Source: Kiritimatiellia bacterium | Lineage (GTDB): Bacteria; Verrucomicrobiota; Kiritimatiellia; RFP12; UBA1067 | DNA: 64,000 nt | Assembly (NCBI GenBank): GCA_051884915.1 | Contig: JBJEWF010000028.1 | Location: 5,515-69,514, forward strand | Direction: 5' to 3' | In this document: positions 3,446 to 33,986 of the stretch, piece by piece | Position numbering within the stretch: the first letter of the stretch is position 1 | Layout of the letters: each line of letters begins with the position of its first letter | Program-made: the position numbers and the translations under genes | Notes under the pieces: generated by a model | Told to the model about the DNA's origin: nothing | The model's database searches: none | Seen by the model: only the letters and a program-made list of their open reading frames with translations

Positions 3446-4465
3446 CTAGACCAGGGACTTGACGATCCGGCGGAACGCCCGTTCGCAGAAGCCGCACCGG
3501 GTGCATTCCCGGGCGCAGCGGGACGTCCGCTCGAACCAGTCGGGCGGAAACGCCGTGTTGTCGAGGAACTGCGGGAAGAACGCGGGCGAGAAGCCCGGCT
3601 CGAAAAGATCCAGCAGATTGCCGTCGAACGAGCCGCGCGCGTAGGCGGAAATCACCATGCCGGGATTCGCGTGCTGGCGCGTGGCCAGCTTGACGACGTC
3701 CACCAGCCCCTCGTAGCGGTGCAGGTCTTCCGGACGAATCCACGTGGCCTTCAGGATCTCGGGGAAATTGACGGGCGACTTGTAGAGCGTCCAGCAGAGA
3801 TGCGGACTCCACCCCTTCACGTTCGTCTGCCGGAGCGCCGCAGACGAATGGGCGACGAGGTTGTCGTGGAACGTCTGCCACGGGCAATTCCGCAAACACC
3901 CCGAATTCGCCAGCAGGCAGAGTTTCTTGCCGCGGCCGTCGCACCAGGCGCGAACCGCCCGCACGGTCTCCAGATGGCGCTGGACGTCGCGGCCCAGGCA
4001 ATAGGAATCGAAGAGCGGCGCCAGATACTCCATCGCCTGGATCGTGGTCAGGCGCATGTTCACCGACGCGCGCACGTCGATGGACGGGAAGGCCCTCTTG
4101 ACCTCCGCCGCGACGAAGGGCGACGCCGTCGTGACGATTTCCGGCAGAAGTCCCGTCTCGTCCAGGCCGCCGAGAATCGCCCGGACGCGCCGCGCGAGCG
4201 CGACGCTCATCGCCTCGGCGCCGTAGCAGTTCGCGTTGAAGAGCAGATCGAGCTTCACGCCCGCGGCGCGCAACCGCCGCAGATCGAAGAGCAGACTGTC
4301 CATCAGCACCTCGGGGTCGTCCTCCTCCTCGTAGCCGAGAACCGGGCGTCCGCTCGGCTCGTCCGGCCACGGGAAGTAGACCTCCCCGACGGCGGGCTGC
4401 GCGAGAACGACGTCCCCGAACGGCGCGCCGTCGGCGAAATGCTGGTAGCCTGCCGCGAACGTCAT
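3446..4465 (-). CDS. Peptidase-U32-like (TIM-barrel, Cys-rich) protein, function unknown
   Basis: 339-aa ORF with ordinary composition. CLLANSGCLRNC resembles the U32 signature around ALCxxxSGxC (C-x6-C), with further Cys downstream. ATG at 4465 lies 1 nt after the upstream stop. Confidence 0.5.
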   Translation of the reverse strand: MTFAAGYQHFADGAPFGDVVLAQPAVGEVYFPWPDEPSGRPVLGYEEEDDPEVLMDSLLFDLRRLRAAGVKLDLLFNANCYGAEAMSVALARRVRAILGGLDETGLLPEIVTTASPFVAAEVKRAFPSIDVRASVNMRLTTIQAMEYLAPLFDSYCLGRDVQRHLETVRAVRAWCDGRGKKLCLLANSGCLRNCPWQTFHDNLVAHSSAALRQTNVKGWSPHLCWTLYKSPVNFPEILKATWIRPEDLHRYEGLVDVVKLATRQHANPGMVISAYARGSFDGNLLDLFEPGFSPAFFPQFLDNTAFPPDWFERTSRCARECTRCGFCERAFRRIVKSLV

Positions 4466-4466
4466 G

Positions 4467-5471
4467 CTAGATCCACGCCTCCTTCTTCTCCATCACGTCC
4501 GGGTCCTCCATCCGGCCCGCGTACTTCGCCGCCGTCTCGGCGTCGATCTCGTACGGTTTGGAGTGGTCGATTTCCCATTGCCGGCGGCCGGGCTGGCGGA
4601 ACGGATTGCGGAACGTGCAGAGCAGCTTCTTGCGCTGTTCGAGATGGACCATGCAGGCGCGCATGCACCCGCAGGCGCCTTCGATGGCGCGGCCGTAGCC
4701 GTATTGGCGCGGATAGTCCCGCTCAAACGGATTGAGTTCGCGCTTCTTGCCGCCGAAAAGGCCCTCTTCGCAGGCCATCTCGTCGAGTTTGCCCCATTCC
4801 TGGACGTGCCCGGCCAGCGTCACCCGGACGCTCTCCGTCATCGACAGCGCCCGGCCGTGGCAGTTTTTCACGCAGAGCTTGCAGCGGTCGCAGATGTGAC
4901 CCTCGAAAATCGGGTCCGGTTCCAGCGGCGCGTCCGTGAACATCACGGCGAAGCGCTGGCGCGGCCCGAACTGCGGGGTCAGAAACACCTTCGACCAGCC
5001 GAACTCGCCGAGACCGGCGAGATAGGCGGCGATGCGGAAATGGACGAACACGTCCGGATACGGCTTGCCCGGCGCGACGGGCCGGCTCCACCCCTTGCGG
5101 AACATGCCCGTCACGGGATTGATCGATTCGCCGCCGTTGCCGTTGAATTGCGGAATGGCCTCGTATCCATGGTCCTCCATCCAGCGCACGAGACGCCACA
5201 GGCACATCGTGCCCTGGACCTGGTTGAGCGACGCATAGCCCATCGACGGGTAGTCGATGAACCGCGTGCCCTCCTCGATTCCGCGCAGCGTGCCGCGCGG
5301 AATGCGGAACGCCAGCACCACCATGGCGCGGGCGCGCGGGAAGATGTAGCGCGGGTCGCACTGCTTCGGCGCGTTCTCCCAGCGGTCCATCGAGGAGATG
5401 CCCACGAGATCGGCGCCCAGTTCCTTCGCCTTGGCCTTGACGTCCGCGGCGGTCAGTTCTTCCAGCATCAT
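4467..5471 (-). CDS. Reductive-dehalogenase/QueG-superfamily-like Fe-S protein, copy 1
   Basis: N-terminus ADVKAKAKELGADLVGIS is typical of QueG/RdhA-like proteins. CDRCKLCVKNC (CxxCxxCxxxC) plus CGCMRAC. GGAGGGGAGGAAA precedes ATGATG at 5471. No signal peptide seen. Confidence 0.7.
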   Translation of the reverse strand: MMLEELTAADVKAKAKELGADLVGISSMDRWENAPKQCDPRYIFPRARAMVVLAFRIPRGTLRGIEEGTRFIDYPSMGYASLNQVQGTMCLWRLVRWMEDHGYEAIPQFNGNGGESINPVTGMFRKGWSRPVAPGKPYPDVFVHFRIAAYLAGLGEFGWSKVFLTPQFGPRQRFAVMFTDAPLEPDPIFEGHICDRCKLCVKNCHGRALSMTESVRVTLAGHVQEWGKLDEMACEEGLFGGKKRELNPFERDYPRQYGYGRAIEGACGCMRACMVHLEQRKKLLCTFRNPFRQPGRRQWEIDHSKPYEIDAETAAKYAGRMEDPDVMEKKEAWI

Positions 5472-5494
5472 GCTCGGTTTCCTCCCCTCCGCGG

Positions 5495-6622
5495 TCAGTC
5501 GATCAGCGGATTGTAGCCCGCCTCCTCCGGCCGGTCCCGCCCGGGGATGGCGCCCTCGGGCGGCTGCACGCCGTAGGCCTCCGTCAGGCCGGCCGCGCGG
5601 GCGCTACCGTAGTTGGACTTCTTGTTGTAGTTCGTGTAGGCGTCGTGGTCTTCGATCTTGCCCGGGAACGCCTCGGCCACCCACGGTTCGAGTTCCGGCT
5701 TCTTCGTGCGGTCGATCGTCCACTGCTTCCAGTCCGGACTGCGGAACGGCTCGCGGAATTCGCGCGCCAGCCTCTTCTTCGCCTCCAGATGGACCATGCA
5801 GGCGCGCACGCAGCCGCAGCTGCCTTCCGTCGCGCGGCCGTAGCCGAACGTGCGCGGATAGTCGCCGTCGAACGGATTGAGCTCTTCGCCGAGTCCGCCG
5901 TAGCGGAAGCTCCGCGCGCAGGCGACCTCGTCGTGCCGGCCCCACGTCTGCACATGGCCCGCCAGCGTGAACGACTCCGCTTCCGTCGGATGGATCGCGC
6001 CGCCATGGCAGTGCTTCACGCACTCCATGCAGCGGTCGCAGATGCGGCCCTCGAAAATCGGGTCCGGCTCAAGTTCGGCGTCCGTGAGCATGATGGCGAA
6101 GCGCTGGCGCGGGCCGAACTCCGGCGTGAGGAACACGCGCGACCAGCCGAATTCGCCGAGACCGGCGAGATAGGCCGCCACGCGGAAATCCGGCGAGACG
6201 TCCGGGTACGGCTTGCCGGGCGCCACCGGCCGGCTCCAGCCCTTGCGGAAGTTGCCCGTGACGGGGTTCACGGCGTCGCCGCCGTTGACGTTCGCCATCG
6301 GCACCGCCTCGTAGCCGTGGTCTTCCATGAACTGCGACATGCCCCAGAGGACCATCGGACCGTAGATCTGGTTGAGCGCCGCATAGCCCATCGACTGGTA
6401 GTTGAGGAAGTGCGTGCCCTCCTCCACGCCGCGCAGCGAACCGCGCGGAATGCGGAACGCGAAGACGATCATCGACTTCGCGCCGGGGAAGATGTAGCGC
6501 GGGTCTTTCTGCCTGTCCACGCCTTCCCAGCGGCTCATGGGCGCAATGCCCACCAGGTCCGCACCGAGTTCTTTCGCCTTGGCCTTGACGTCGGCCGCGG
6601 TCAGATCGCCTAGATATGCCAT
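5495..6622 (-). CDS. Reductive-dehalogenase/QueG-superfamily-like Fe-S protein, copy 2 (tandem paralogue)
   Basis: Track ORF 5495..6940 trimmed to the ATG at 6622 (MAYLGDLTAADVKAKAKELGADLVGIA...). Same Cys motifs as copy 1 (CDRCMECVKHC, CGCVRAC). About 45 extra C-terminal residues. AAAGGAA precedes the start. Confidence 0.7.
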   Translation of the reverse strand: MAYLGDLTAADVKAKAKELGADLVGIAPMSRWEGVDRQKDPRYIFPGAKSMIVFAFRIPRGSLRGVEEGTHFLNYQSMGYAALNQIYGPMVLWGMSQFMEDHGYEAVPMANVNGGDAVNPVTGNFRKGWSRPVAPGKPYPDVSPDFRVAAYLAGLGEFGWSRVFLTPEFGPRQRFAIMLTDAELEPDPIFEGRICDRCMECVKHCHGGAIHPTEAESFTLAGHVQTWGRHDEVACARSFRYGGLGEELNPFDGDYPRTFGYGRATEGSCGCVRACMVHLEAKKRLAREFREPFRSPDWKQWTIDRTKKPELEPWVAEAFPGKIEDHDAYTNYNKKSNYGSARAAGLTEAYGVQPPEGAIPGRDRPEEAGYNPLID

Positions 6623-18851: not shown

Positions 18852-20147
18852 CTAGCGTTCAAATGCCCGATGGGCGATGTCCTTCCGCGAAAACGCGCCG
18901 TCGAAGGCGATTTTCGCCACGCCCGCATAGGCCACGTCGACGGCCGTGCGCAAGTCGGCGCCCAGGCCCGTCACGCTCAGCACGCGGCCGCCCGCCGTCA
19001 CGACCCGTCCGTCGCGCACCGCCGTGCCGCAATGGAACACCGTCGCGCCCGCCGCCGCCGCGTCGTCCAGACCGGAGATGGCCTTGCCCTTGGCGTAGCC
19101 GCCCGGATAGCCGCCGGACGCGACGATCACGGTCGCCGCCGCCTCCGGCTTCACGACCACGTCGGCGTCCTTCAGGCAGCCCGTCGCCACGTGGAGAAGC
19201 GTTTCGGCGAAGTTGCCGCCCAGGCGGGGCAGCACCGCCTCCGTCTCCGGATCGCCAAAGCGCGCGTTGAATTCGACCACGTTGACCGGCGAGCCGCTCC
19301 GGGCCAGCCTGCCGCCCGCGGGCGTGACCATCAGCCCCGCATAGAGCACGCCGCGGTAGACGATGCCGCGCTTCTTCAGTTCGCGGACGACCGGCAGGAT
19401 GATCTTCTCCTTGATTTCGGGCAGCATGTCGGCGGATACGACCGGCGCCGGCGAGTAGGCGCCCATGCCGCCCGTGTTCGGCCCCCGGTCGCCGTCGAAC
19501 ACGCGCTTGTGGTCCTGCGAACTCGGCAGCAGCACGGCCGTCTCGCCGTCGACGAGCGCCAGGATCGAGCACTCCTCGCCTTCGAGAAACTCCTCGATCA
19601 GGACCTCGGCGCCCGCCGCGCCGAACTTGTTGCCCACGAGCATGTCGTCGATTGCCGCCTCGGCCTGTTCCGCCGTTTCCGCGACCACCACGCCCTTGCC
19701 CGCCGCCAGGCCATCGGCCTTGATGACGACGGGCAGGCCCCAGTCCGGCAGCGCGGCCTTGGCCGCCGCCGCGTCCGTAAACGTCCGGGCCCGCCCTGTC
19801 GGCACGCCGGCGGCCTCCATGACGGCCTTCGCGAACCGCTTCGAGCCTTCCATGCGCGCGCCGGCCCGGACCGGTCCGAACGCCGTCACGCCGGCCGCGT
19901 CCAGCGCGTCGACCAGCCCCTTGCAGAGCGGGGCTTCGGGACCGACGACCACGAGGTCGGGCCGGTTCGCCCGCGCCCACGCGACGAGGCCTTCCACGTC
20001 CTCGGCGTCCAGCGCCAGGTTCGTCGCCAACGCCGCCGTGCCCGCATTGCCCGGCGCGCAGAACAGCTCGTGCCGCTCCGCGTCCTGCGCCAGACGCCAC
20101 GTGATGGCGTGCTCGCGCCCGCCGCTTCCCACAACCAGAATCTTCAT
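18852..20147 (-). CDS. purD: Phosphoribosylamine-glycine ligase
   Basis: Trimmed to the ATG at 20147 (MKILVVGSGGREHA...). KADGLAAGKGV, EFNARFGDPE. GAGGAG lies 7 nt upstream. Confidence 0.93.
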   Translation of the reverse strand: MKILVVGSGGREHAITWRLAQDAERHELFCAPGNAGTAALATNLALDAEDVEGLVAWARANRPDLVVVGPEAPLCKGLVDALDAAGVTAFGPVRAGARMEGSKRFAKAVMEAAGVPTGRARTFTDAAAAKAALPDWGLPVVIKADGLAAGKGVVVAETAEQAEAAIDDMLVGNKFGAAGAEVLIEEFLEGEECSILALVDGETAVLLPSSQDHKRVFDGDRGPNTGGMGAYSPAPVVSADMLPEIKEKIILPVVRELKKRGIVYRGVLYAGLMVTPAGGRLARSGSPVNVVEFNARFGDPETEAVLPRLGGNFAETLLHVATGCLKDADVVVKPEAAATVIVASGGYPGGYAKGKAISGLDDAAAAGATVFHCGTAVRDGRVVTAGGRVLSVTGLGADLRTAVDVAYAGVAKIAFDGAFSRKDIAHRAFER

Positions 20148-20188: not shown

Positions 20189-21625
20189 CTACAACGCGGC
20201 CAGTTTCCGGGCCACCAGCGGACCGACGATCTTCGGATCGGCCTTGCCGCCGGAAAGCTTCATGACCTGGCCGACGAAGAAACCCGCCGCCGCCTTCTTG
20301 CCGGCCTTGAAGTCCGCCACCGGTCCCGGATTGGCGGCAATCGCCCGGTCGACGTAGGCCTCCAGCGCCGCCGCGTCGGAGACGGCGCCCAGGCCGCGTT
20401 CCTTCACGATGGCTTCGGGATCGCCGCCGCGTTCGAAGAGCTCCGGCAGCAGCTCCTTGAGCGTCGGGCCGTTGATCGTGCCCCGGGCGGACAGCGAAAT
20501 CAGCGCGCGCAGCGCCTCGGGCGTCAGGGCGCATTCGCCGATTGCCTTGCCCGAGGCGTTCAGCAGCGCCAAAACGTCGCCCATGAACAGGTTGCAGAGC
20601 AGTTTCGCCGTCTTCTTGTCGAGGCCCTGCGCCGCCGCCTCGAAGTAGTCGGCGTTCGCCTTGTGCCGCGACAGGACGCCGGCGTCGTATTCGGCGATGC
20701 CGTACTGCTCGACCATGCGGGCGCGGCGGGCCTCCGGTTTCTCCGGCAGCAGGTTGCGCCAGCTCGCGACGAGATCCTCCGAAAGCTCCACGGGCACCAG
20801 ATCGGGCTCGGGGAAGTAGCGGTAGTCGTGGGCGTTCTCCTTCGAGCGCATCGCGACCGTCTCCAGGGACTCCGGGTCCCACCGGCGCGTTTCCTGGACA
20901 ATGGGAATCGAATGGGCCAGGCAGTCCCGCTGGCGGCGCGCCTCGTATTCGAGGGCCGCATGGATGTTGCCGAAGGAATTCATGTTCTTGATCTCGACCT
21001 TCGTGCCCAGCCGCTCCGCGCCGACGGGGCGGATCGAGATGTTCACGTCGGAGCGCATGTTGCCTTCTTCGAGATTGCAGTCCGAAACGCCCGCGTAGAC
21101 GAGCAGTTCCCTGAGCGCCGTCAGGTAGGCGATCGTCTCGTCCGCGTCGGAGAGGTCCGGCTCGCCGACAATCTCCATCAGCGGCGTGCCGCCGCGGTTG
21201 AAATCCACCCCCGACGTCGTCGCGTAGTGGTTGATTTTCGCCGCGTCCTCTTCCAGGTGGATGTGGTTGATGCGGATGAACTTCCTCGTGCCGTCCGCCT
21301 TCGTGATCTCCACGCCGCCGCCGAGGCACAGGGGGTTGCCGTTCTCGGAGATCTGGTAGTCCTTCGCCATGTCGGGATAGAAGTAGTTCTTGCGGTCGAA
21401 GGTGGCGTGCCGGTTGATCGTGCTGCCGAGCATCAGCCCGCTCATGACCGTCAGCCTGACGGCCTCCCTGTTCATGACCGGCAGGGCCCCCGGATAGCCC
21501 AGGCAGACGGGACACGTGTTCGTATTCGGCTCGCAGCCCGTCTGCAGCAGACAGCCGCAGAACATCTTCGTGCGCGTCTTCAGTTGGACGTGCGTCTCAA
21601 GTCCGATGTTGGTTTCGAATTCCAT
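20189..21625 (-). CDS. gatB: Asp-tRNA(Asn)/Glu-tRNA(Gln) amidotransferase subunit B
   Basis: Trimmed to the ATG at 21625 (MEFETNIGLETHVQLKTRTKMFCGC...). Full-length GatB similarity including the C-terminal YqeY-like tail. Confidence 0.93.
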   Translation of the reverse strand: MEFETNIGLETHVQLKTRTKMFCGCLLQTGCEPNTNTCPVCLGYPGALPVMNREAVRLTVMSGLMLGSTINRHATFDRKNYFYPDMAKDYQISENGNPLCLGGGVEITKADGTRKFIRINHIHLEEDAAKINHYATTSGVDFNRGGTPLMEIVGEPDLSDADETIAYLTALRELLVYAGVSDCNLEEGNMRSDVNISIRPVGAERLGTKVEIKNMNSFGNIHAALEYEARRQRDCLAHSIPIVQETRRWDPESLETVAMRSKENAHDYRYFPEPDLVPVELSEDLVASWRNLLPEKPEARRARMVEQYGIAEYDAGVLSRHKANADYFEAAAQGLDKKTAKLLCNLFMGDVLALLNASGKAIGECALTPEALRALISLSARGTINGPTLKELLPELFERGGDPEAIVKERGLGAVSDAAALEAYVDRAIAANPGPVADFKAGKKAAAGFFVGQVMKLSGGKADPKIVGPLVARKLAAL

Positions 21626-21630
21626 GGTCT

Positions 21631-23382
21631 TCACTCGTTCTCTTCGTGTTGGGGGTCGCCGGACCGGCCGGACGCGCCGTCGGCCGTCTCGGCCGCGCCG
21701 TCCAGCCGGCGCAGCCGCTCGTCGATCCGGCGCTTGAGGCGCTCGATCTCGCCGCGCACGACGACCGTGCGGTTCGTGCGGCGCGGATCGTGCGCCTGGT
21801 CCTCCAGGGAGCGCAGATCGAGCGAATCCATGCCGCGGATGCCCTGGCGGATGCGGTCGCCGGGTTCGTGGAGAATGCCCTCGGTGAACTGGCGGCCCAG
21901 CACGGCGTTCTTCGGCAGGCCGACATCCTCCTTGATCTCGCGCGCGTCGACCAGTCCGACCGTCACGAAGACGAGAATCTCCTTCTGCTCCTTGACGCGC
22001 ACCTTCGAGCCGAAGAGGCGCGGGCCGATCCACCACCAGTCGCGCAGCCAGGGGATGCCGTTGTCCATCTGCGTCTCGATGGTCCGCGAGAGGCCGCCGA
22101 TCACGGCGGTGGACCCGCTGGCCATGTTGAACTCAGTGACGAGACGCTGCACCTCGATGACGGGATAGCGGGCGGAGTAGGAGTCGGAATCGGCATCGCC
22201 GCTGCCGGCGGAGACCTCGTCGGTCTTCGCGCTCACGGTCGGCACGATCTCGACGTGGATCAGGCCATCGGCGCCGACGCGCGGCGTGACCTCCAGCGAA
22301 ATGCCCCAGCTGAAGAACGCCTCCTTGGCGAACATCATCTTGTCCTCGCCGGGGATGGCGGCCATCTTCATGTCGAGGTCGACCGACGTGGAGTTGTCGT
22401 TGATCGTCTTCTTGACGGCGATCGTCACGTTCGGATACTTCGTCGTCATGTCGACCGTCGCCTTCCGGCCGGACGCGACGATGATCTTGGGGTTGGAGAA
22501 GGTCCGCGCGTCCTCGCTCGCCTCCAGGGCGCGCAGGATGACGTAGAGGTCGCTCATGCCGATCGTGCCCTGCACGCGCGACAGGTTCGCGCGGCCGATG
22601 CCGCCGTCGCCGTAGGTGGTCTTCGTCGTGCTGCCGTCCTCGACGACGCTCTGCACGCCCACCATGCGCCGCTGGTCGAAGGACGTGTTCATGCTCACGA
22701 CGCCATGCATGCCGTCGAGCATCCGCCAGTCGATGCCGAGCTTGTGCGACGCGTTGTTGGAAAGCTCCACGAAGCGCGCCTCGACGTAGACCTGGCGCGT
22801 CTCGACGTCCACGTCGCGCACGACCCGCTCGCAGGCGTCCAGCACCACGCCCGGCGCGGTCACCATCACCACGTTGGCGTCGCTGAACGCCTGCGCCACC
22901 TTATCGAGCTTCCACCCGAGGCCGAAATCGCCGCTCCACATCGCGTTGATGCGTTCGGCCACCTCCGTCGCCGACGCGTGGCGGAGCGGGAAGGAGCGCG
23001 TGTCGACCCGCCGGGCGCGGAGCGCCGTTTCGCTCGCGGCGGCGGCGGCGGCCACGTCGGCCGCGGCCTTCTTCACGGCGGCGGCGACCGCCTTGTCGAG
23101 CCGGTTCGTGTCGATCAGGAGCAGAGAGGGGACGTTCGTCGACGTCCCCGTCTCCGTGACGGCGTTCGTCGTCGCCAGGGCGTTCGCCACCACGTTCGTG
23201 GCATACGGCGCCTGCACGGCGAAGGGGTCGTTCGTGAGCGGACTCACCGCGAGGAACATCTGGTTCGTCACCTGCACGGCGAAAGTCGCGACGTTCGTGA
23301 TGGCGGGCGCGGAAATCGCCCCCGCCGCGGCGAGGGGAACGGCGGCGGCCGCCCCGGCCAGACGCAGCAGGCGGGCGGTCAT
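21631..23382 (-). CDS. Secretin (GspD/PilQ family outer-membrane channel) with a charged ~90-aa C-terminal extension
   Basis: Trimmed to the ATG at 23382 (MTARLLRLAGAAAAVPLAAAG, a signal peptide). Secretin-N-like FPLRHASATEVAERI. Secretin core QVYVEARFVELS...GSTAVIGGL...IPWLRD...KEILVFVTVGLV. ATGA overlap with gatA and a 5-nt gap to gatB. Confidence 0.85.
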   Translation of the reverse strand: MTARLLRLAGAAAAVPLAAAGAISAPAITNVATFAVQVTNQMFLAVSPLTNDPFAVQAPYATNVVANALATTNAVTETGTSTNVPSLLLIDTNRLDKAVAAAVKKAAADVAAAAAASETALRARRVDTRSFPLRHASATEVAERINAMWSGDFGLGWKLDKVAQAFSDANVVMVTAPGVVLDACERVVRDVDVETRQVYVEARFVELSNNASHKLGIDWRMLDGMHGVVSMNTSFDQRRMVGVQSVVEDGSTTKTTYGDGGIGRANLSRVQGTIGMSDLYVILRALEASEDARTFSNPKIIVASGRKATVDMTTKYPNVTIAVKKTINDNSTSVDLDMKMAAIPGEDKMMFAKEAFFSWGISLEVTPRVGADGLIHVEIVPTVSAKTDEVSAGSGDADSDSYSARYPVIEVQRLVTEFNMASGSTAVIGGLSRTIETQMDNGIPWLRDWWWIGPRLFGSKVRVKEQKEILVFVTVGLVDAREIKEDVGLPKNAVLGRQFTEGILHEPGDRIRQGIRGMDSLDLRSLEDQAHDPRRTNRTVVVRGEIERLKRRIDERLRRLDGAAETADGASGRSGDPQHEENE

Positions 23383-24791
23383 TCCCGGACCTCCTCGAAC
23401 GCCCGGGCGATGGCAAGCAGCCGGTCCTCGCGGAAGGCGTCGCAGATGAACTGCACCCCCACGGGGAGGCGCGCGCCGTCCCGCGCCGCCCATCCCGCCG
23501 GCACGCTGGCCGCGCAGGTGCCCGCGAGCGCGCACGGGATCGTGAACAGGTCGTTCAGATACATCGTCAGCGGGTCCTGGACCTCGCCCAGCTTGAACGC
23601 CGGCGTCGGCGCCACCGGCGTCAGCAGCGCGTCGACCTGCCGGAACGCCGCCTCGAAATCGCGGCGGATCAGCGTGCGGACCTTCTGCGCCCGCCCGTAG
23701 TAGGCGTCGTAGTAGCCGCTCGACAGCACGTAGGTGCCCATGATGATGCGGCGCTTCACCTCGGGACCGAACCCCTCGGCGCGGCTGCGCGCGTAGAGGT
23801 CGAACACCGTGTCGCTCCTGTCCGACCGGTGGCCGTAGCGCACGCCGTCGAAACGGGCCAGGTTCGCGCTCGCCTCCGCCGGCGCCACGATGTAGTAGAC
23901 CGCCATCGCATAGTCGGTATGCGGCAGGGAGACGTCGACGATTTCCGCCCCCGCCGCCGCGCACTTTCCGATGGCCTCCTCCGTGATGCGCTTCACGTCG
24001 GCGTCCATGCCGTCGATGAAATACTCTTTCGGCAGTCCCAGCCTGACGCCCTTGAGCGAAGCCCCTTCCAGGGCCGCCAGATAGTCCGGCACGGGCGCGT
24101 CGGGCGTCGTGCCGTCCATCTCGTCATGCCCCGCGAGCGCCTGCAGCAGAATCGCCGCGTCCTCGACGCTCTTCGTCATCGGGCCCACCTGGTCGAGCGA
24201 AGAGGCGAACGCCGTCACGCCGAAGCGCGACACCCGGCCGTAGGACGGCTTCACGCCCACGCAGTTGCAGAAACTCGCGGGCTGGCGGATGGACCCGCCC
24301 GTGTCCGTACCCAACGCCGCCAGGCAGAGATCCCCGCCGACCGCCGCCGCGCTGCCGCCCGAACTGCCGCCCGGCACGCGCGTCGTGTCGTAGGGGTTGC
24401 GCGTCACGCCCAGCGCCGAGTTCTCCGTGGAGGACCCCATCGCGAACTCGTCCATGTTCACGCGCCCGGCGCAGATGAAATCCGCCTTCTTGACGTTCCT
24501 GACGACCGTCGCGTCGTACGGGCTCGTGTAGCCCCGGAGGATCTTCGACCCGCACGTGCAGGGCTGCCCCGCCACGTTGATCAGGTCCTTGATGGCAAGC
24601 GGCACGCCCCGCGGATTCGCCCGCGCGGCCGCCAGCGCCCCCTCCTCGTCGAACGAGACGTAGGCGCCGATGCGGGGATTCTCGGCCCGGACGCGGTCGA
24701 TGACCGCCTGCATCAGCTCGACACTCGTGAAATCGCCCCGGGCCAGCCCCGCGCGGGCCTCCCTGATGCCCAATCGGAAAAGTTCGCTCAC
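23379..24791 (-). CDS. gatA: Glu-tRNA(Gln)/Asp-tRNA(Asn) amidotransferase subunit A
   Basis: Amidase signature GGSSGGSAAAV. GTG start at 24791 overlapping the gatC stop (GTGA). Confidence 0.93.
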   Translation of the reverse strand: MSELFRLGIREARAGLARGDFTSVELMQAVIDRVRAENPRIGAYVSFDEEGALAAARANPRGVPLAIKDLINVAGQPCTCGSKILRGYTSPYDATVVRNVKKADFICAGRVNMDEFAMGSSTENSALGVTRNPYDTTRVPGGSSGGSAAAVGGDLCLAALGTDTGGSIRQPASFCNCVGVKPSYGRVSRFGVTAFASSLDQVGPMTKSVEDAAILLQALAGHDEMDGTTPDAPVPDYLAALEGASLKGVRLGLPKEYFIDGMDADVKRITEEAIGKCAAAGAEIVDVSLPHTDYAMAVYYIVAPAEASANLARFDGVRYGHRSDRSDTVFDLYARSRAEGFGPEVKRRIIMGTYVLSSGYYDAYYGRAQKVRTLIRRDFEAAFRQVDALLTPVAPTPAFKLGEVQDPLTMYLNDLFTIPCALAGTCAASVPAGWAARDGARLPVGVQFICDAFREDRLLAIARAFEEVRE

Positions 24792-25087
24792 GACTCCGCC
24801 CCTTCCACGATCTTCGGCAGCATGAATTCGTCGCCCGTGCGCGCCGGCGCGTTGGCCAGGGCGGTCTCACGGTCCAGAGAGGGACGGACCACGTCCTCGC
24901 GGAAGGCGTTCACCAATGCCCGGCCATGCATCATGGGCGGAACGTCGTCCACGTTGACGGACGAAATCTTCTCGACGTATTTGACGATAGTTTCGAGCTG
25001 GGGCTGGAAAACGGCCTTTTCGGCCTCGGTCAGTTCCAAACGCGCCAGCTCCGCCACATAGGCGACATCGATGGTGGGCTTGTTCAT
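24788..25087 (-). CDS. gatC: Amidotransferase subunit C
   Basis: Trimmed to the ATG at 25087 (MNKPTIDVAYVAELARLELTEAE...). 99 aa, sitting ahead of gatA. Confidence 0.88.
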   Translation of the reverse strand: MNKPTIDVAYVAELARLELTEAEKAVFQPQLETIVKYVEKISSVNVDDVPPMMHGRALVNAFREDVVRPSLDRETALANAPARTGDEFMLPKIVEGAES

Positions 25088-25105: not shown

Positions 25106-25232
25106 AAAAATCCCGCGCGGAGGACACGGGAAGACGGCCCCGGCCGGGGCGCGCGGACCGGCGGGCGAATGCCCGCGAAACACGGGCGTTCGCCGCGCCG
25201 CCGGCCCGATCGGATGCGGCGGCTCCGGCGGC

Positions 25233-29241: not shown

Positions 29242-32200
29242 CTAGCCGAAGAGGCGGTCGGGAATGAAGCAGCTCGCCACCACGTGCCCCTTCACCACGA
29301 CGGTGGCGACGGGAACGGTCCGTCCCGTGAACATCTTGAAGTTCTGGAGCCATTGCCCGCGCAGTTCGATTTCCAGCGCCCCGGTCTCCGCCTTGAAGGA
29401 GACGACCACCAGTTCGCGCGGGGAATAGCGGATGCCCGTGCCCAGGGCCTTCGACACGGCCTCCTTCGCGCACCAGAACCGGATGATCGCGCTGGGGGAG
29501 TCCACGGCGTTGACGGCCAGCTCCTGCTCTTCCGGCAGGAAGACGCCGTGCGTGAATTCGTCCGAGAGGCACCGGTCGGAGGCTTCCACGTCGACGCCGA
29601 CGCGCGCGTTCATCGCCGCCACGGCCAGGACGAAACGCGACGTGTGGGCAATGGAGACGTCCAGCCGCATGTTCTGCCACAGGTGTCCCTGCCAGGGGCC
29701 TTCCGTCAGCGGCTTGCCGCAGGGGTCCGTGTAGACCTGGACGTCGGCGTCGCTCCAGCGGGCCTGGTAGAACCGCTCCAGGAAGCGGCGGACGGCTTCC
29801 TTGGCCGCAATGCGCCCGAAAAGCCATTCCGTCCGCCGCGCCACGCCGCCCTTGGCCGCCATTTCGGAGAACTCGCGGCGCTCGTTGCGCCCCAGCACGA
29901 TGTGCGAAAGCGCCTTGAGCCACAGTTCCTCGTTCCGCTCGAACAGCGGGTAGTCGACGTCCGTCAGCATGGCCGACGCGATGGACGTGCCGGGCGAGCC
30001 CAGCCGGTCGTCCGGCAGATCCCGCGACAGATAGGTCCGCGCGGGCTCCAGGAGCAGACGGCGGTATTCGTCCGGCACCCGGACCGTCAGCTCCTCGTAG
30101 CCGTGCAGCTCCATCAGCAGGTTGCCGTTGCCGTCCGAAACGAAGATGTCCGCCACCAGCGAGGTCGGCGTCACCCCCGTATTGCGCAGGTAGCACTGCA
30201 GATGCGCGTTGTCGGGAATCGCGAGCTTGTGCAGCGTCAGCACGCGCAGGCGGAAGGCGTAGGACACCGCGCCCGCGAACCGTTCGTGGCTCCGCCACAG
30301 CTGGAAGCCGTCCGTCACCGCGGCCAGCAGTTGCGGATTCAGGACCCAGCAGGGCACGGTCGTGTGCCGGACCGCCTCGTCGGACGCGGGCACCACGACC
30401 TCGTAGTCCAGGCCCTCTTCGCTCCAGCGGTCCGCCTTGGCGATGCCCTGGAGCTGGCGGCCGGCGAACAGACGGTCCGGATAGATGTCGCATTGCGCCC
30501 AGTGGACATCGCGCGCTTTTTCGTGGGGCGGCGGCGTGAAGGCCACCGGCGCCACGTCGGCCTTCGTCAGCAGGAACGTGCCCTCCATCGCGGGCCACGT
30601 CCAGACGGAGTCCGGCGCGTCCTCGCGGATCTGGACGCGAACGGCGGTCCGCTTCGGATCGGACGACGCCACGTGTTCGGCCCGCACGAAGAGCTTCAGC
30701 CTGCCGTTCTGGAACGGCACCGTTCGCCGGCGCTGCAGATCGTCAATCGCCACCACGTGCAGGCCGGGCGTCAGCGTCTGGGCCAGTTCGGCCATGATTT
30801 CCGCCCCCATGACCAGCGTCAGGACGGTGAATCCGCGCAGCGGCGGCGCCGAACCGTCTCCATGCTCGGGGTGGGACAGCTGCGAGGTGCCCATGGCGAA
30901 ATCGGCCAGCAGCGGTTCCGAATCGAAGGAGAACACCTTCGAGATCTCGATCGACATGCTCGGCTGATAGGACTCGACGTTCATGTCGGAAATCAGCGGA
31001 TACGCGGCGCCGTAGCCGAACTGCTGCTGCCGCTGCCGGAGCCGCACGGCGGCGGCGCGGCGGCGCGCCGCCGCCCGGTCGCGCCGGTCCGGCGCGCTCT
31101 CCATCGTCGCCACCATGGCCGATCCCTCCAGCGAGGGCTTTTCCGTCAGCAGAAGAAGCCGCGGGAATTCGCGGGAGAGGCGCAGTTCCGTTTCGTTGCG
31201 GATGCTCAGCGCGAGCGGGGCGTCGAAGGGCAGCAGCCGGCACCGGCGCTGGCGGAAGAGCAGCGACGGGTCGACCGGCGCCCCCAGGGCCGCCAGCATG
31301 CCGACCACGTGCATCAGCTGCAGCAGACCCGCGCGGTGGATGGAGTCGGCGGCCAGCGCGACGTGCTCTTCGCCGTGAAGGACCTCGTCGACAAAGCCGC
31401 TGCACGTCCCCCGCGGACCGACCTCCAGAAAGACGCGAACGCCATCCGCGTGCATCCGGCGGATCGTCTCCTCGAACCGCACGGGCTCGACCCACTGCTC
31501 GGCCACGCCGTCGCGGACCTTGCGGACTTTCATCGGCAGGCGCTCCGCCGTCCCGCAGGAATAGACCGGGATGCGCGGCTTCTCGTCCACCCAGTTCGAC
31601 GCGAACTTCCGGAAGAGCGGCAGCACCGACCGGCACCACGGCGTGTTGAACGGGCGGTCGACCGAGAGGCGGTGGCTGCGGATGCCCAGGCCGGCCAGAC
31701 GGTGCAGGATGCCTTCGGCGTGTTCCGGATCGAACGCGACCGTCAGGTGCCGCGGCGAAAACCGGTAGGCGACGCTGGCCTGGTCCGCCGGCAGGTCCGC
31801 CAGCGCCGCGGCCGCCTGTTCCGGATGGGGCGAGACGAGCGAAACGAACAGGCATTTGGGCAGCCCGGCGTGGGAGACCGCCGTATTGACGACCTTGTAG
31901 ACCTCCTGGAGGAACTTCAGCCGGTCCTTGCGCTCGAATTTGCCCAGCAGCCCGCCCACGGCCAGCGCGCTCAGGTCGCCGCCCGAGAAACCCGTCGCGG
32001 CGTCCGGGACGATGCCCAGCGCCTGGAACATCCGCGTCAGCGCCAGGTTGGCGGAATAGGTCGACACCAGGGCCTCCGCATAGCCGCCGGCCGTGAACAC
32101 GTCCGCGTCCTGGCGATAGTGCGGCGCGGGGGGGAAGATGAACGAAGAGGGCTGAAACGGACCCTTGCCCTTCAGCGCCGACTCCAGCTCGTCGAAGGGC

Positions 32201-32619
32201 AGACGGCACTCGCGGAAGCGGACCGCCACCTCGCGCAGCATGTCGGGATAGAACGACATGGCCCCCGAATAGACGAACGCGAGCTTGCCGGTTCCGCCTT
32301 CGCCCAGAACGTGGCGGCGGAAGAAATAGGTCCCCGACCTGTCGCGAATCCGTTCCGTCCTTTCGTCCGCCAGACGCGCGGCGGCCGAAGCCAGACGGCC
32401 GCGCAGTTCGGCCGTGTCCGACGCCACGATCGCCAGCACGGCCGCCTGGCCGGGACCGAACTTCCGGGCGCACGTGTACGCGACGTCCCGCAGCTCGACG
32501 CTGGACACCTGGTCCAGAAACGCGATCAGGCCCTTGGCGTCCTGCGCCAGCTGGGCGACGCTGTCGGCGCCGAGGAGCACGAGTTCGCTGCCGAAGGACT
32601 CGCTGAAATCCGCGCTCAC
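29242..32619 (-). CDS. PKS-like multidomain protein: KS-AT linker, acyltransferase-like, polyketide-dehydratase-like, then Sfp-type 4'-phosphopantetheinyl transferase
   Basis: Track ORF 29242..33414 trimmed to the GTG at 32619 (VSADFSESFGSELVLLGADS...), with GGGGAGGAG 6 nt upstream. AT-like LAFVYSGAMSFYPDM and GFSGGD. DH-like YPLIS...LADFAMG. PPTase motifs VSIAHTS, VGVDVE and WCAKEAVSKALG. Confidence 0.85.
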   Translation of the reverse strand: MSADFSESFGSELVLLGADSVAQLAQDAKGLIAFLDQVSSVELRDVAYTCARKFGPGQAAVLAIVASDTAELRGRLASAAARLADERTERIRDRSGTYFFRRHVLGEGGTGKLAFVYSGAMSFYPDMLREVAVRFRECRLPFDELESALKGKGPFQPSSFIFPPAPHYRQDADVFTAGGYAEALVSTYSANLALTRMFQALGIVPDAATGFSGGDLSALAVGGLLGKFERKDRLKFLQEVYKVVNTAVSHAGLPKCLFVSLVSPHPEQAAAALADLPADQASVAYRFSPRHLTVAFDPEHAEGILHRLAGLGIRSHRLSVDRPFNTPWCRSVLPLFRKFASNWVDEKPRIPVYSCGTAERLPMKVRKVRDGVAEQWVEPVRFEETIRRMHADGVRVFLEVGPRGTCSGFVDEVLHGEEHVALAADSIHRAGLLQLMHVVGMLAALGAPVDPSLLFRQRRCRLLPFDAPLALSIRNETELRLSREFPRLLLLTEKPSLEGSAMVATMESAPDRRDRAAARRRAAAVRLRQRQQQFGYGAAYPLISDMNVESYQPSMSIEISKVFSFDSEPLLADFAMGTSQLSHPEHGDGSAPPLRGFTVLTLVMGAEIMAELAQTLTPGLHVVAIDDLQRRRTVPFQNGRLKLFVRAEHVASSDPKRTAVRVQIREDAPDSVWTWPAMEGTFLLTKADVAPVAFTPPPHEKARDVHWAQCDIYPDRLFAGRQLQGIAKADRWSEEGLDYEVVVPASDEAVRHTTVPCWVLNPQLLAAVTDGFQLWRSHERFAGAVSYAFRLRVLTLHKLAIPDNAHLQCYLRNTGVTPTSLVADIFVSDGNGNLLMELHGYEELTVRVPDEYRRLLLEPARTYLSRDLPDDRLGSPGTSIASAMLTDVDYPLFERNEELWLKALSHIVLGRNERREFSEMAAKGGVARRTEWLFGRIAAKEAVRRFLERFYQARWSDADVQVYTDPCGKPLTEGPWQGHLWQNMRLDVSIAHTSRFVLAVAAMNARVGVDVEASDRCLSDEFTHGVFLPEEQELAVNAVDSPSAIIRFWCAKEAVSKALGTGIRYSPRELVVVSFKAETGALEIELRGQWLQNFKMFTGRTVPVATVVVKGHVVASCFIPDRLFG

Positions 32620-33986
32620 TGCCGCTCCTCCCCTTCGGGCTCCTCTTCCATGACCACCGCCGCCTTCCGTCCGCCCGGCTCGCCCGCCAGCACCATGGCG
32701 CGCCGCGGGGAGGAGGGGTCGCCCGTGATCCACGGCCGCGCCTCGTTCAGCAGGTAGACGGACGACCCGCGGCTGGACAGCACGGCGAGAGGATTCGCGA
32801 CGGGCATCTGCGGCGGCAGAATCCGGCGCCAGAGGGCGATGGCGATCTTCAGCAGGCTGGCCGCCGCCTCCGCCCGGAAGCAGTGCCCCACGTTGCCCTT
32901 CACCGAACCGATTCCCACCAGGGCGCCGCCCGGGAGATGGTCGCCCCACGCCCGCTGCAGGGCGACGACCTCCTCCTCGTCGGCCGCGGGCGTTCCGTAG
33001 CCTTCGGCCTCGACCAGCCCGATCGAGTGGAAATCGACCTGGGCGCGGTCGACGGCCGCCGCCAGCGCCTCGTCGATCGAGACCGCGCCGCAGGAGACGC
33101 CGCGGATCAGCGCATAGATCCGGTCGTTCGCCGCCAGCGCGTCCGCCTCGCGCTTGAGGACGAAGAACGCGCCGCCCTCGCCGGGCAGCGTCCCGGCGGC
33201 ATGCCGGTCGAACGGCAGCAGGTCCGGCTCCTCCGAAAAGTCCATTTCGCCCGAAACGCCTTCGAGCAGCGACCGGCTCAGCGGCGGCGTGAGCGCGCCC
33301 GCCAGGGCCACGTCGGCGCGGCCGCTCCGCAAATCGTCCATCGCCGCGCGCAGGGAGGCCACGCCGCTGAGCACGCCGCCGTCCAGCGTCGTCGCGCCGC
33401 CGGAAAACGAGCACTCGCGCGCGATCCAGTCGGCAATGCGGTGTCCGCTTCCGGCAAGGAAGCTCGCCGCGTTCGGCGCCGGCAGCGATTCGACCAGTTT
33501 CACGCGAATCTGCTCCATCGCCTCGCTCGGGGCCGTGCGGAAGAACTTCGCGATGATGTCCATGGTCTGGTCGATGAAATGCGTGTGCAGCAGCCAGTTG
33601 ACCGTCGACGCGTTGAAGGGCGGCGCGTAGCCGAAGCGCACCGTTCCCCGCTGGCGCTCCCGGCCATGGGGCCGCAGACCGGCGTCCAGCAGCGCGTCAA
33701 AGGCCAACTGCACGGCAAAATACAGGTCCTGGTTCTCGCCGGCGTTGATCTGGCGGGGGAAGTTCTGCTCGCCGGGCTCGCAGGCGTAGAGTTCGCCCAG
33801 CAGACCGCCGTGGCGGGGATAGGGGCGGGCGAACAGCGTGGCCGCCTCGGGCAGCAAACCGCTCTCCACGGGAAAGGGGGCGATGCCGCTCTTCTGGTGC
33901 ATGACCATGCGCCAGAAAGCCCCGGGATCCGGCGCCTTGGCAAAACGGCAGGAAACGCCAATGATCGCTATTGGTGTGTTTTGCAC
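32616..33986 (-). CDS. Ketosynthase-like protein lacking the active-site Cys (KS0)
   Basis: Track ORF 32616..34619 trimmed to the GTG at 33986 so that the conserved KS N-terminus IAIIGVSCRFA is kept. TLDGGVLSGVASL replaces [20 protein letters not shown] replaces EAHGTGT. GSVKGNVGH is retained. Confidence 0.8.
   Translation of the reverse strand: MQNTPIAIIGVSCRFAKAPDPGAFWRMVMHQKSGIAPFPVESGLLPEAATLFARPYPRHGGLLGELYACEPGEQNFPRQINAGENQDLYFAVQLAFDALLDAGLRPHGRERQRGTVRFGYAPPFNASTVNWLLHTHFIDQTMDIIAKFFRTAPSEAMEQIRVKLVESLPAPNAASFLAGSGHRIADWIARECSFSGGATTLDGGVLSGVASLRAAMDDLRSGRADVALAGALTPPLSRSLLEGVSGEMDFSEEPDLLPFDRHAAGTLPGEGGAFFVLKREADALAANDRIYALIRGVSCGAVSIDEALAAAVDRAQVDFHSIGLVEAEGYGTPAADEEEVVALQRAWGDHLPGGALVGIGSVKGNVGHCFRAEAAASLLKIAIALWRRILPPQMPVANPLAVLSSRGSSVYLLNEARPWITGDPSSPRRAMVLAGEPGGRKAAVVMEEEPEGEERQ

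Follow-up and report, generated by a model that had tools for sequence, protein, structure and literature searches.

The analysis of a 64,000-nucleotide stretch of a Kiritimatiellia genome (assembly GCA_051884915.1, contig JBJEWF010000028.1, positions 5,515 to 69,514; hereafter the window, to which coordinates refer unless a locus or contig is named) reveals a secretin gene (P0001, 21631..23382, minus strand, 1752 nt, 583 aa) lying between gatA and gatB of the gatCAB amidotransferase genes. Taken as a whole, these findings are best explained by a conserved, N0-less secretin paralogue that was inserted in gatCAB, is co-expressed with it and serves a type IV filament machine encoded elsewhere, a reading to which we assign a probability of about 0.55. 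A secretin gene is ordinarily taken as a sign that a type II, type III or type IV pilus system is encoded nearby, and gatCAB counts as a compact housekeeping unit. A secretin with undetected N0, placed inside gatCAB, probably coupled to gatA and present in three sampled genera of gut and rumen Kiritimatiellae, which are abundant but uncultured, would represent an old and stable oddity of gene order.

Domain architecture and family assignment of the secretin

By its sequence, the protein is a genuine secretin of a clade-restricted lineage that occurs in a few genera of gut and rumen Kiritimatiellae. The Pfam Secretin domain (PF00263) matches the pore domain at residues 285-478 (21949..22530) with 91.3 bits against a cut-off of 27.5, covering model positions 1-168 of 169, while Secretin_N matches a single N3-type domain at residues 128-197 (22792..23001) in a narrow pass of 30.9 bits against 28.2. 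The N-domain and secretin core described by an earlier note made from the letters alone (the original prediction) thus both pass their Pfam models. Among five other lineage members scanned, Secretin_N lies above the cut-off in one (L097, 29.5 bits) and below it in four. Residues 1-90 (23113..23382) consist of a hydrophobic, signal-peptide-like start followed by a Thr/Asn/Ala/Val-rich stretch and contain no Pfam domain at E<=0.01; hydrophobic N-termini are likewise present in 17/17 gat-linked orthologues. Many of these gat-linked orthologues share (V/I)TN(V/F)xT after the signal-like segment (VVTNVATF, VVTNFVTT, ITNVSTF), as at 23283-23310 of the window, and this motif stands in an otherwise unalignable N-terminal region.

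Beyond the pore domain, a C-terminal extension (residues 484-535, 21778..21933) is conserved both in the lineage and in a paralogue linked to a type IV pilus (T4P) cluster, with invariant columns across 44 sequences at G488, P490, N492, A493, G496, R497, E506, P507, G508, D522, R524 and Q529. It is followed by a variable, Arg/Glu/Asp-rich tail (residues 536-583 plus stop, 21631..21777), and the 16 R, 11 E and 10 D counted in the last 100 residues agree with the charged C-terminal tail that had been noticed earlier. Lineage conservation spans approximately residues 125 to 535 and comprises 105 invariant columns across 44 orthologue sequences, in all of which the open reading frame (ORF) is intact; the first ~120 and last ~45 residues vary, and relatives align only up to about residue 538-544.

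Comparison with curated family models places the protein outside the named secretin classes. It scores 128.1 bits against the 351.35 of the GspD equivalog TIGR02517 (matching only model positions 300-591 of 600), 110.5 against the 284.35 of the PilQ subfamily TIGR02515, 96.4 against the 250.2 of the MshL equivalog TIGR02519 (model positions 9-288 of 290 covered) and 64 against the 238 of the SctC model, and Pfam STN (the N0 domain) finds no match in it at E<=0.01. The description of the gene as a full-length secretin is therefore not borne out in the sense of GspD or PilQ, as the protein has only one N3-type domain and no detectable N0 and misses the GspD and PilQ cut-offs. In public databases, 1887 proteins match at E<=1e-30, the 120 listed all carry only Secretin with or without Secretin_N, and lineage members are labelled 'GspD' or 'hypothetical'; by curated criteria the automatic annotation 'GspD' is wrong.

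These assignments were complemented by profile and structure comparisons. A profile of the 44 orthologues matched solved structures of GspD at 7e-20 and PilQ at 2e-18, with injectisome secretins far weaker and RcpA (8odn) at 1.9e-8. A reading as a Tad secretin (RcpA/CpaC) was considered, since the genome holds a Tad-like set without a secretin on contig C26 and the protein is short; it was rejected as a leading idea because the profile similarity to RcpA lies far below that to GspD and PilQ. The rcpC-cpaF-tadB set of the genome is located on C26, not adjacent to the gene. The AlphaFold2 monomer model has a mean predicted local distance difference test score (pLDDT) of 51.6, with few alignment rows covering residues 1-120. 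It shows residues 1-90 as disordered (pLDDT 21-33), residues 92-124 as a helix and 126-208 as a confident N3-like domain, followed by barrel strands and a long C-terminal helix at 534-570 that accounts for most of the tail; the Secretin_N region is modelled best, with a pLDDT of 74-83 in most blocks and 58 in one. Among the Foldseek matches of this model, the top 40 are all secretins (E 1e-15 to 3e-10, TM-scores 0.2-0.6 at that mean pLDDT), led by the PilQ of the V. cholerae competence pilus (1e-15). Foldseek did not separate the type II secretion system (T2SS), T4P and type III secretion system classes, and the model is too poor for classing or for the N-terminal fold.

Organization of the locus and its junctions

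On the minus strand, which carries all features described in this section, the window presents gatC, gatA, the secretin gene, gatB and purD, followed by succinate dehydrogenase/fumarate reductase genes, with the secretin in exactly the position and at exactly the coordinates originally predicted. The stop of gatC (24788..25087, 99 aa, ATG at 25087; Pfam GatC 70.9 bits, TIGR00135 78.5 against a cut-off of 47.1) overlaps the start region of gatA (23379..24791, 470 aa; Pfam Amidase 489.9 bits, TIGR00132 564.4 against 481.1), and gatB (20189..21625, 478 aa; GatB_N 368 bits, GatB_Yqey 144 bits, NF004012 601 against 338) completes the set. All three subunits of a bacterial gatCAB thus score above their equivalog models on one strand, but the set is not contiguous, the 1752-nt secretin gene separating gatA from gatB.

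The junctions on both sides of the secretin gene are tight and read as the original prediction had stated. The secretin ATG (23382-23380) overlaps the gatA TGA (23381-23379) as ATGA at 23379..23382, and a Shine-Dalgarno-like GAGGAGG lies 7 nt 5' of this ATG, within the 3' end of gatA. At the opposite end, the secretin TGA (21633-21631) is separated from the gatB ATG at 21625 by the 5-nt spacer AGACC (21626..21630), a distance so short that the ribosome-binding region of gatB must lie inside the secretin gene. The secretin gene has a GC content of 0.69, matching its neighbours, and a third-position GC content of 0.95, compared with 0.93 for gatA and 0.90 for gatB.

A terminator-like hairpin with a T-run (25111..25131; 8-pair stem, TTTTTTGC tail; a consensus match only) lies 3' of a rubrerythrin gene and likely marks the upstream boundary of the gat transcription unit. 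A consensus scan found no terminator-like site on the minus strand from 25111 to 18388. Given the overlapping junctions and the lack of such sites, co-transcription with gatCAB and coupled expression, which had been put forward as secretin synthesis being "locked" to the operon, are reasonable to infer. Moreover, purD (18852..20147, 431 aa; GARS_A, GARS_N and GARS_C domains) starts 41 nt 3' of gatB and may belong to the same transcription unit as gatB. After the hairpin, a TATAAT at 25102-25097, again a consensus match only, stands 9 nt before the gatC ATG, a position that may leave the gat operon mRNA with little or no leader.

Partner genes are missing from the surroundings of the secretin, in line with the original observation. 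Specifically, a Pfam scan (E<=1e-5) of the 41 further ORFs of the window detected neither T2SSE nor T2SSF, nor a pilin or any other type II/IV component, and a prepilin motif that has 31 matches genome-wide has 0 in the six frames of the window.

Recurrence of the arrangement in related genomes

To place the locus among its relatives, 48 related loci were collected from species-representative genomes of animal gut, human gut and rumen, mostly titled Kiritimatiellae or Kiritimatiellaeota, and gat neighbours were sought by tblastn with the GatA, GatB and GatC of the window. Gat genes stand beside the secretin in 13/48 loci: ten of these have gatA and gatB, two have gatB only, at a contig end, and one (L007:1188-5770) presents a third locus state in which a secretin 86% identical to that of the window is followed by gatB after 4 nt and a 929-aa ORF replaces the upstream gatA. 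A sample of the order comprising 151 genomes was examined in addition, of which 72 hold a secretin match at E<=1e-40 and 36 of these carry the lineage proper. The secretin adjoins gatB in 9/36 lineage carriers, distributed over the sampled genera as 6/8 in g1, 2/2 in g4, 1/1 in g14 and 0/25 in g8.

The tightness of the junctions recurs along with the order. In 17/17 loci with a visible gatA end, the distance from the gatA stop to the secretin start lies between -4 and +13 nt, the codon at -4 being ATG in 7/17 and GTG in 6/17 (some of the GTG cases may start at a nearby ATG), and the gap between secretin and gatB measures -4 to +51 nt in 18 related loci; these 17 and 18 loci come partly from the same or closely related genomes and are not all independent. 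Among gat-linked loci, secretin identity falls to 55-60% with order and tight junctions kept. These observations were further strengthened by contigs of relatives (80-95% alike) from four further public runs, which bridge gatB and the secretin, the secretin and gatA, or gatA and gatB at a distance of ~1.6 kb. No public run searched contained >8% of the sampled words, so that the source strain is not among them; the four runs provide contigs of relatives only, in which uncovered stretches carry no meaning, and no transcript ends, strand or levels; a 597-nt contig over the gatB 5' end and the 3' part of the secretin comes from a library recorded as metatranscriptomic and shows gene order, not a transcript.

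The source genome is a metagenome-assembled genome (2.8 Mb, 107 contigs, 95% complete), and this fragmentation is what speaks for an assembly or binning artefact in which a chimeric join put a foreign secretin between gatA and gatB. The probability of such an artefact is practically negligible, because the same order recurs in many independent assemblies from different projects and across three sampled genera; in addition, the contigs of the four further runs bridge the junctions, the composition of the secretin matches its neighbours, and the junctions themselves are in-frame start/stop overlaps. The chimeric join that the original prediction had named as its possible undoing is thereby excluded by the synteny comparison it had proposed. 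In the course of this comparison, eight loci (L007, L011, L036, L040, L046, L049, L051 and L052) were found under the titles Clostridiales, Lachnospiraceae, Muribaculaceae, Lachnospira, Gemmiger, Faecalibacterium or Alistipes; their contigs carry Kiritimatiellae-type secretin, gat or DUF481 genes, and the taxonomic bin labels look wrong.

Probable derivation from a pilus-cluster secretin and the undetected N0 domain

The nearest paralogue of the lineage is the secretin of loci L044 and L047 (693-706 aa), with 41-43% identity over residues 128-542 (BLASTP), compared with 22-26% between the window secretin and three other secretins of its own genome. In L044, ATPase genes of the PilB, PilT and PilB types come directly after the paralogue. 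In L047, a 1442-aa BspA-type leucine-rich-repeat gene (L047:6527-10855) lies between the pilus-cluster secretin and the PilB gene. This PilQ-like T4P-cluster secretin shares Secretin_N, the pore domain and the C-terminal extension with the window protein and differs from it in ~70 additional N-terminal residues with a weak STN/N0 match, a region absent from the window protein, and in its location, the window protein being placed in gatCAB.

In L044 and L047 the STN match stands just before Secretin_N and reaches 24 bits, below the cut-off of 28.4, while Pfam detects no STN/N0 in 6/6 lineage members scanned. Secretin_N starts as early as residue 83 in the shortest orthologues, which leaves ~60 residues after the signal sequence. 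This is less than the ~80 residues that an N0 domain needs. Together, these observations suggest that the lineage is an N0-less, shortened derivative of the pilus-cluster secretin. As described in PMC8134430, GspC of the platform is contacted by N0, and pore assembly requires N3.

Genomic contexts and history of the arrangement

The contexts of the secretin were classified at 52 loci, namely the 48 related loci and 4 taken from sampled genomes. Gat genes accompany it at 15, DUF481 and/or a B12-binding radical-SAM gene lies directly downstream at 29, TPR and VWA genes lie downstream at 5, and 3 hold the T4P-linked paralogue. In the DUF481 context there is often a 4-nt overlap between the secretin stop and the DUF481 start, and DUF481 was considered as a dedicated partner on account of these overlaps in a sister genus. 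This idea was weakened, because the DUF481-radical-SAM pair stands without an upstream secretin in three gat-linked relatives examined and DUF481 occurs in 143/151 sampled genomes of the order; the pair would be an old unit that the secretin joined in one genus. In the genome of the window the pair likewise has no secretin upstream, but it lies at a contig end where the upstream side is cut off. As a side observation, DUF481, a predicted outer-membrane barrel, and the B12-binding radical-SAM gene form a conserved pair (for example L014:3594-8816, and C52:14145-16815 in the genome of the window) that is present at L014, L019, L020, L022-L025, L027, L031, L033, L037, L039, L043 and L045; in one genus the secretin stands directly 5' of the pair, often with a GtrA-family gene 5' of the secretin.

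Among the carriers with the secretin elsewhere, seven were checked (G137, G097, G103, G146 and G154 directly, G074 and G141 from match positions), and in all seven gatB is not next to gatA; in five genomes with gatA located, gatC and gatA are still paired and other genes follow. Genus g8 comprises 27 sampled genomes, 25 of which carry the lineage, and a non-carrier, G085, also has gatB apart from gatA. The nearest two outgroups examined, G010 and G049, possess contiguous gatA-gatB and no orthologue, so that the earlier wording of a gene "spliced" into the operon appears fair, while gatB stands alone in two other lineage-free outgroups (G138 and G014).

Phylogenetic trees were consulted for the polarity of these states. 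The gat-linked genomes make up a grade in the gatB tree, where 8/9 DUF481-linked genomes group as a single clade (96/90) whose sister (85/83) is the clade of the window. In the secretin tree, a single clade of gat-linked sequences was rejected by the approximately unbiased (AU) test (p-AU 0.030), and a single clade of DUF481-linked sequences was not (p-AU 0.117). The trees thus favour the gat-linked order as the older state. The history that we infer begins with an insertion into contiguous gatCAB that was kept in g1, g4 and g14, and continues with at least two later rearrangements that would have broken the operon at the insert.

Candidate partner machines in the genome

The term orphan, applied to this secretin in the original prediction, holds at the locus but not genome-wide. 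The genome contains 8 T2SSE and 10 T2SSF matches on contigs C87, C4, C25, C2, C26, C63 and C103, which give at least six loci for type II/IV ATPases or platforms, together with three other secretins of 999, 748 and 904 aa. Contig C25 holds a complete T2SS with its own secretin, and two PilM-linked long secretins are located on C22 and C89. Two sets come without a secretin: a core T2SS-like set on C4 (GspE, GspF, GspG, GspK and pseudopilins) and a Tad-like set on C26 (RcpC-CpaF-TadB). C63 carries a PilC-plus-pilins locus, and C87 a PilB-PilT-PilB operon whose ATPases are 90-92% identical to those of L044 and which is preceded by an unrelated, non-secretin gene.

The C87 pilus ATPase set is the first candidate partner, because its counterpart in L044 directly follows the longer paralogue and no L044-type secretin was found in the 95%-complete assembly; the C4 set is the second candidate, and no result discriminates between them. 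A further element was noted on the small contig C2 (7988 bases; L083:435-4599), which encodes an ATPase resembling GspE (644 aa) and a GspF-like protein (524 aa). Its GspF-like gene has no orthologue in 4 same-genus genomes sampled, its best matches (42%) coming from two other genera, and the element is accessory, possibly mobile, or else mis-binned.

Proposed explanation and its alternatives

In the explanation that we favour, the secretin would have arisen as a shortened paralogue of a T4P-cluster secretin, keeping the N3-type domain, the pore and the C-terminal extension and losing the N0/STN region by which secretins usually dock to the inner-membrane platform, and its gene would have been inserted between gatA and gatB in an ancestor with contiguous gatCAB. 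The secretin would be expressed from the gatCAB transcript, its translation being coupled to that of gatA, as the ATGA overlap, the GAGGAGG and the lack of internal terminator-like sites in the scan suggest. Given such co-transcription and translational coupling, its synthesis would be constitutive and in step with the housekeeping operon. After Sec export the protein would form a multimeric, gated outer-membrane pore serving a type IV filament machine encoded elsewhere, and its link to GatCAB would lie in gene order and expression and not in biochemistry.

Several observations weigh against this explanation. The loss of N0 is argued from Pfam, from the room in short orthologues and from a low-confidence model (pLDDT 51.6); Pfam STN is also undetected in the other long secretins of the genome, and a divergent N0 could escape it. 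The polarity of the history derives from single-gene trees with open forks and long branches, including a very long outgroup branch in the secretin tree, and the groups of the AU tests were named once the tree had been seen. The close relative L007 has the secretin and gatB without gatA upstream. As regards the partner, no phyletic profile among the candidate machines matches the 36/151 genomes of the lineage: the C4-type GspF occurs in 141/151 genomes, RcpC in 5/5 checked, 3 of them without the lineage, and the C2 GspF-like gene is private to the genome of the window. Moreover, the long secretins of C22 and C89, with their PilM-like neighbours, could serve the pilus ATPases instead.

Some of the same evidence would suit a free-standing pore, that is, a protein that has lost N0, works with no type II/IV machine and acts as an autonomous gated outer-membrane channel for the uptake or release of a substrate, which would explain its residence in unrelated housekeeping operons (gatCAB, or DUF481 with radical SAM). 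The neighbours are non-type II/IV in all three contexts (15 gat, 29 DUF481/radical-SAM and 5 TPR+VWA loci), the 6/6 members scanned show no STN/N0 match where the T4P-linked paralogue has a weak one, and the profile of the lineage is matched by that of no machine. Against this reading, no secretin is known to us that operates without a filament or phage assembly machine. The gate, the pore regions and the C-terminal extension are shared in conserved form with the T4P-linked paralogue, there are documented secretins whose genes lie apart from those of their machines, and the absence of N0 is not firm; we regard a free-standing pore as rather unlikely. In the cited parts of PMC8134430, the mitochondrial GspD links an N0-less secretin to the absence of GspC, which speaks in its favour. 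That the protein is an autonomous, constitutive gate whose residence in core operons reflects selection for platform-independent, growth-coupled expression we consider unlikely.

A functional tie to GatCAB, in which secretin output tracks Gln/Asn-tRNA amidation or signals in the gene set the GatA:GatB ratio, could draw on the retention of order and tight junctions over deep divergence, to the 55-60% secretin identity given above, and on the ribosome-binding region of gatB within the secretin 3' end. Inertia of a tightly packed operon explains this conservation, and no pathway shared by a cytoplasmic enzyme and an outer-membrane pore is known. A tie of this kind is very unlikely, and a biochemical link to tRNA amidation unlikely, because the lineage is found elsewhere in 25/25 g8 carriers as well as in G146 and G154, where gatB stands in other contexts, and the outgroups have gatA-gatB without the insert.

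Comparison with known systems and significance

GspD (TIGR02517; 5wq7, 5wq8, 9k8v) provides the best profile matches among solved structures (7e-20 to 1e-19). In contrast to it, the window protein matches N3 and the pore only, with N0-N2 absent, and no gspC, gspE, gspF, gspC-M set or pseudopilin genes occur among the 41 further window ORFs, the T2SS sets being on other contigs. PilQ (TIGR02515; 6w6m, 6ve2) is the top Foldseek match and the MshL model (TIGR02519) is covered almost fully. The architecture of PilQ includes AMIN domains; in the window protein no AMIN or N0 domains were detected, and the window has no adjacent pilMNOP genes. 

Two described systems offer partial parallels. The XphA/XqhA pair of Pseudomonas aeruginosa, of the GspC/GspD type, lies apart from the xcp locus and works with Xcp (PMC6567927), so that XqhA, like the window secretin under the favoured explanation, has its gene at another site than the machine that it serves; XqhA has a GspC-type partner, XphA, and is not reported in a housekeeping operon, whereas the window secretin has no adjacent GspC-like gene. 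The truncated mitochondrial GspD of some protists is without N0 in a system without GspC (PMC8134430), but according to the same parts of that paper it is also without N1-N3 and a portion of its C-domain, and it is eukaryotic, of an origin unrelated to the window lineage. Literature searches returned nothing on a secretin-in-gatCAB arrangement, most hits concerning the hormone secretin, which is no proof of its being unpublished.

The locus offers a natural case for asking what a secretin does without a platform-docking domain, and what constitutive, operon-driven synthesis costs or brings. It also serves as a warning that secretin counts in PVC-group genomes are unsafe for inferring secretion systems. 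If the secretin is a relocated pore for a pilus or T2SS elsewhere, the arrangement is a gene-order curiosity only; if it were an autonomous gate, it would be the first stand-alone bacterial secretin.

Other features of the window

Two further minus-strand regions of the window were noted. At 3446-6622, a tandem of three genes (339, 334 and 375 aa) lacks any Pfam match at E<=1e-5, and the second and third share near-identical N-termini. At 29242-33414, a 1390-aa protein joins an acyltransferase domain to a C-terminal 4'-phosphopantetheinyl transferase domain, an unusual fusion.

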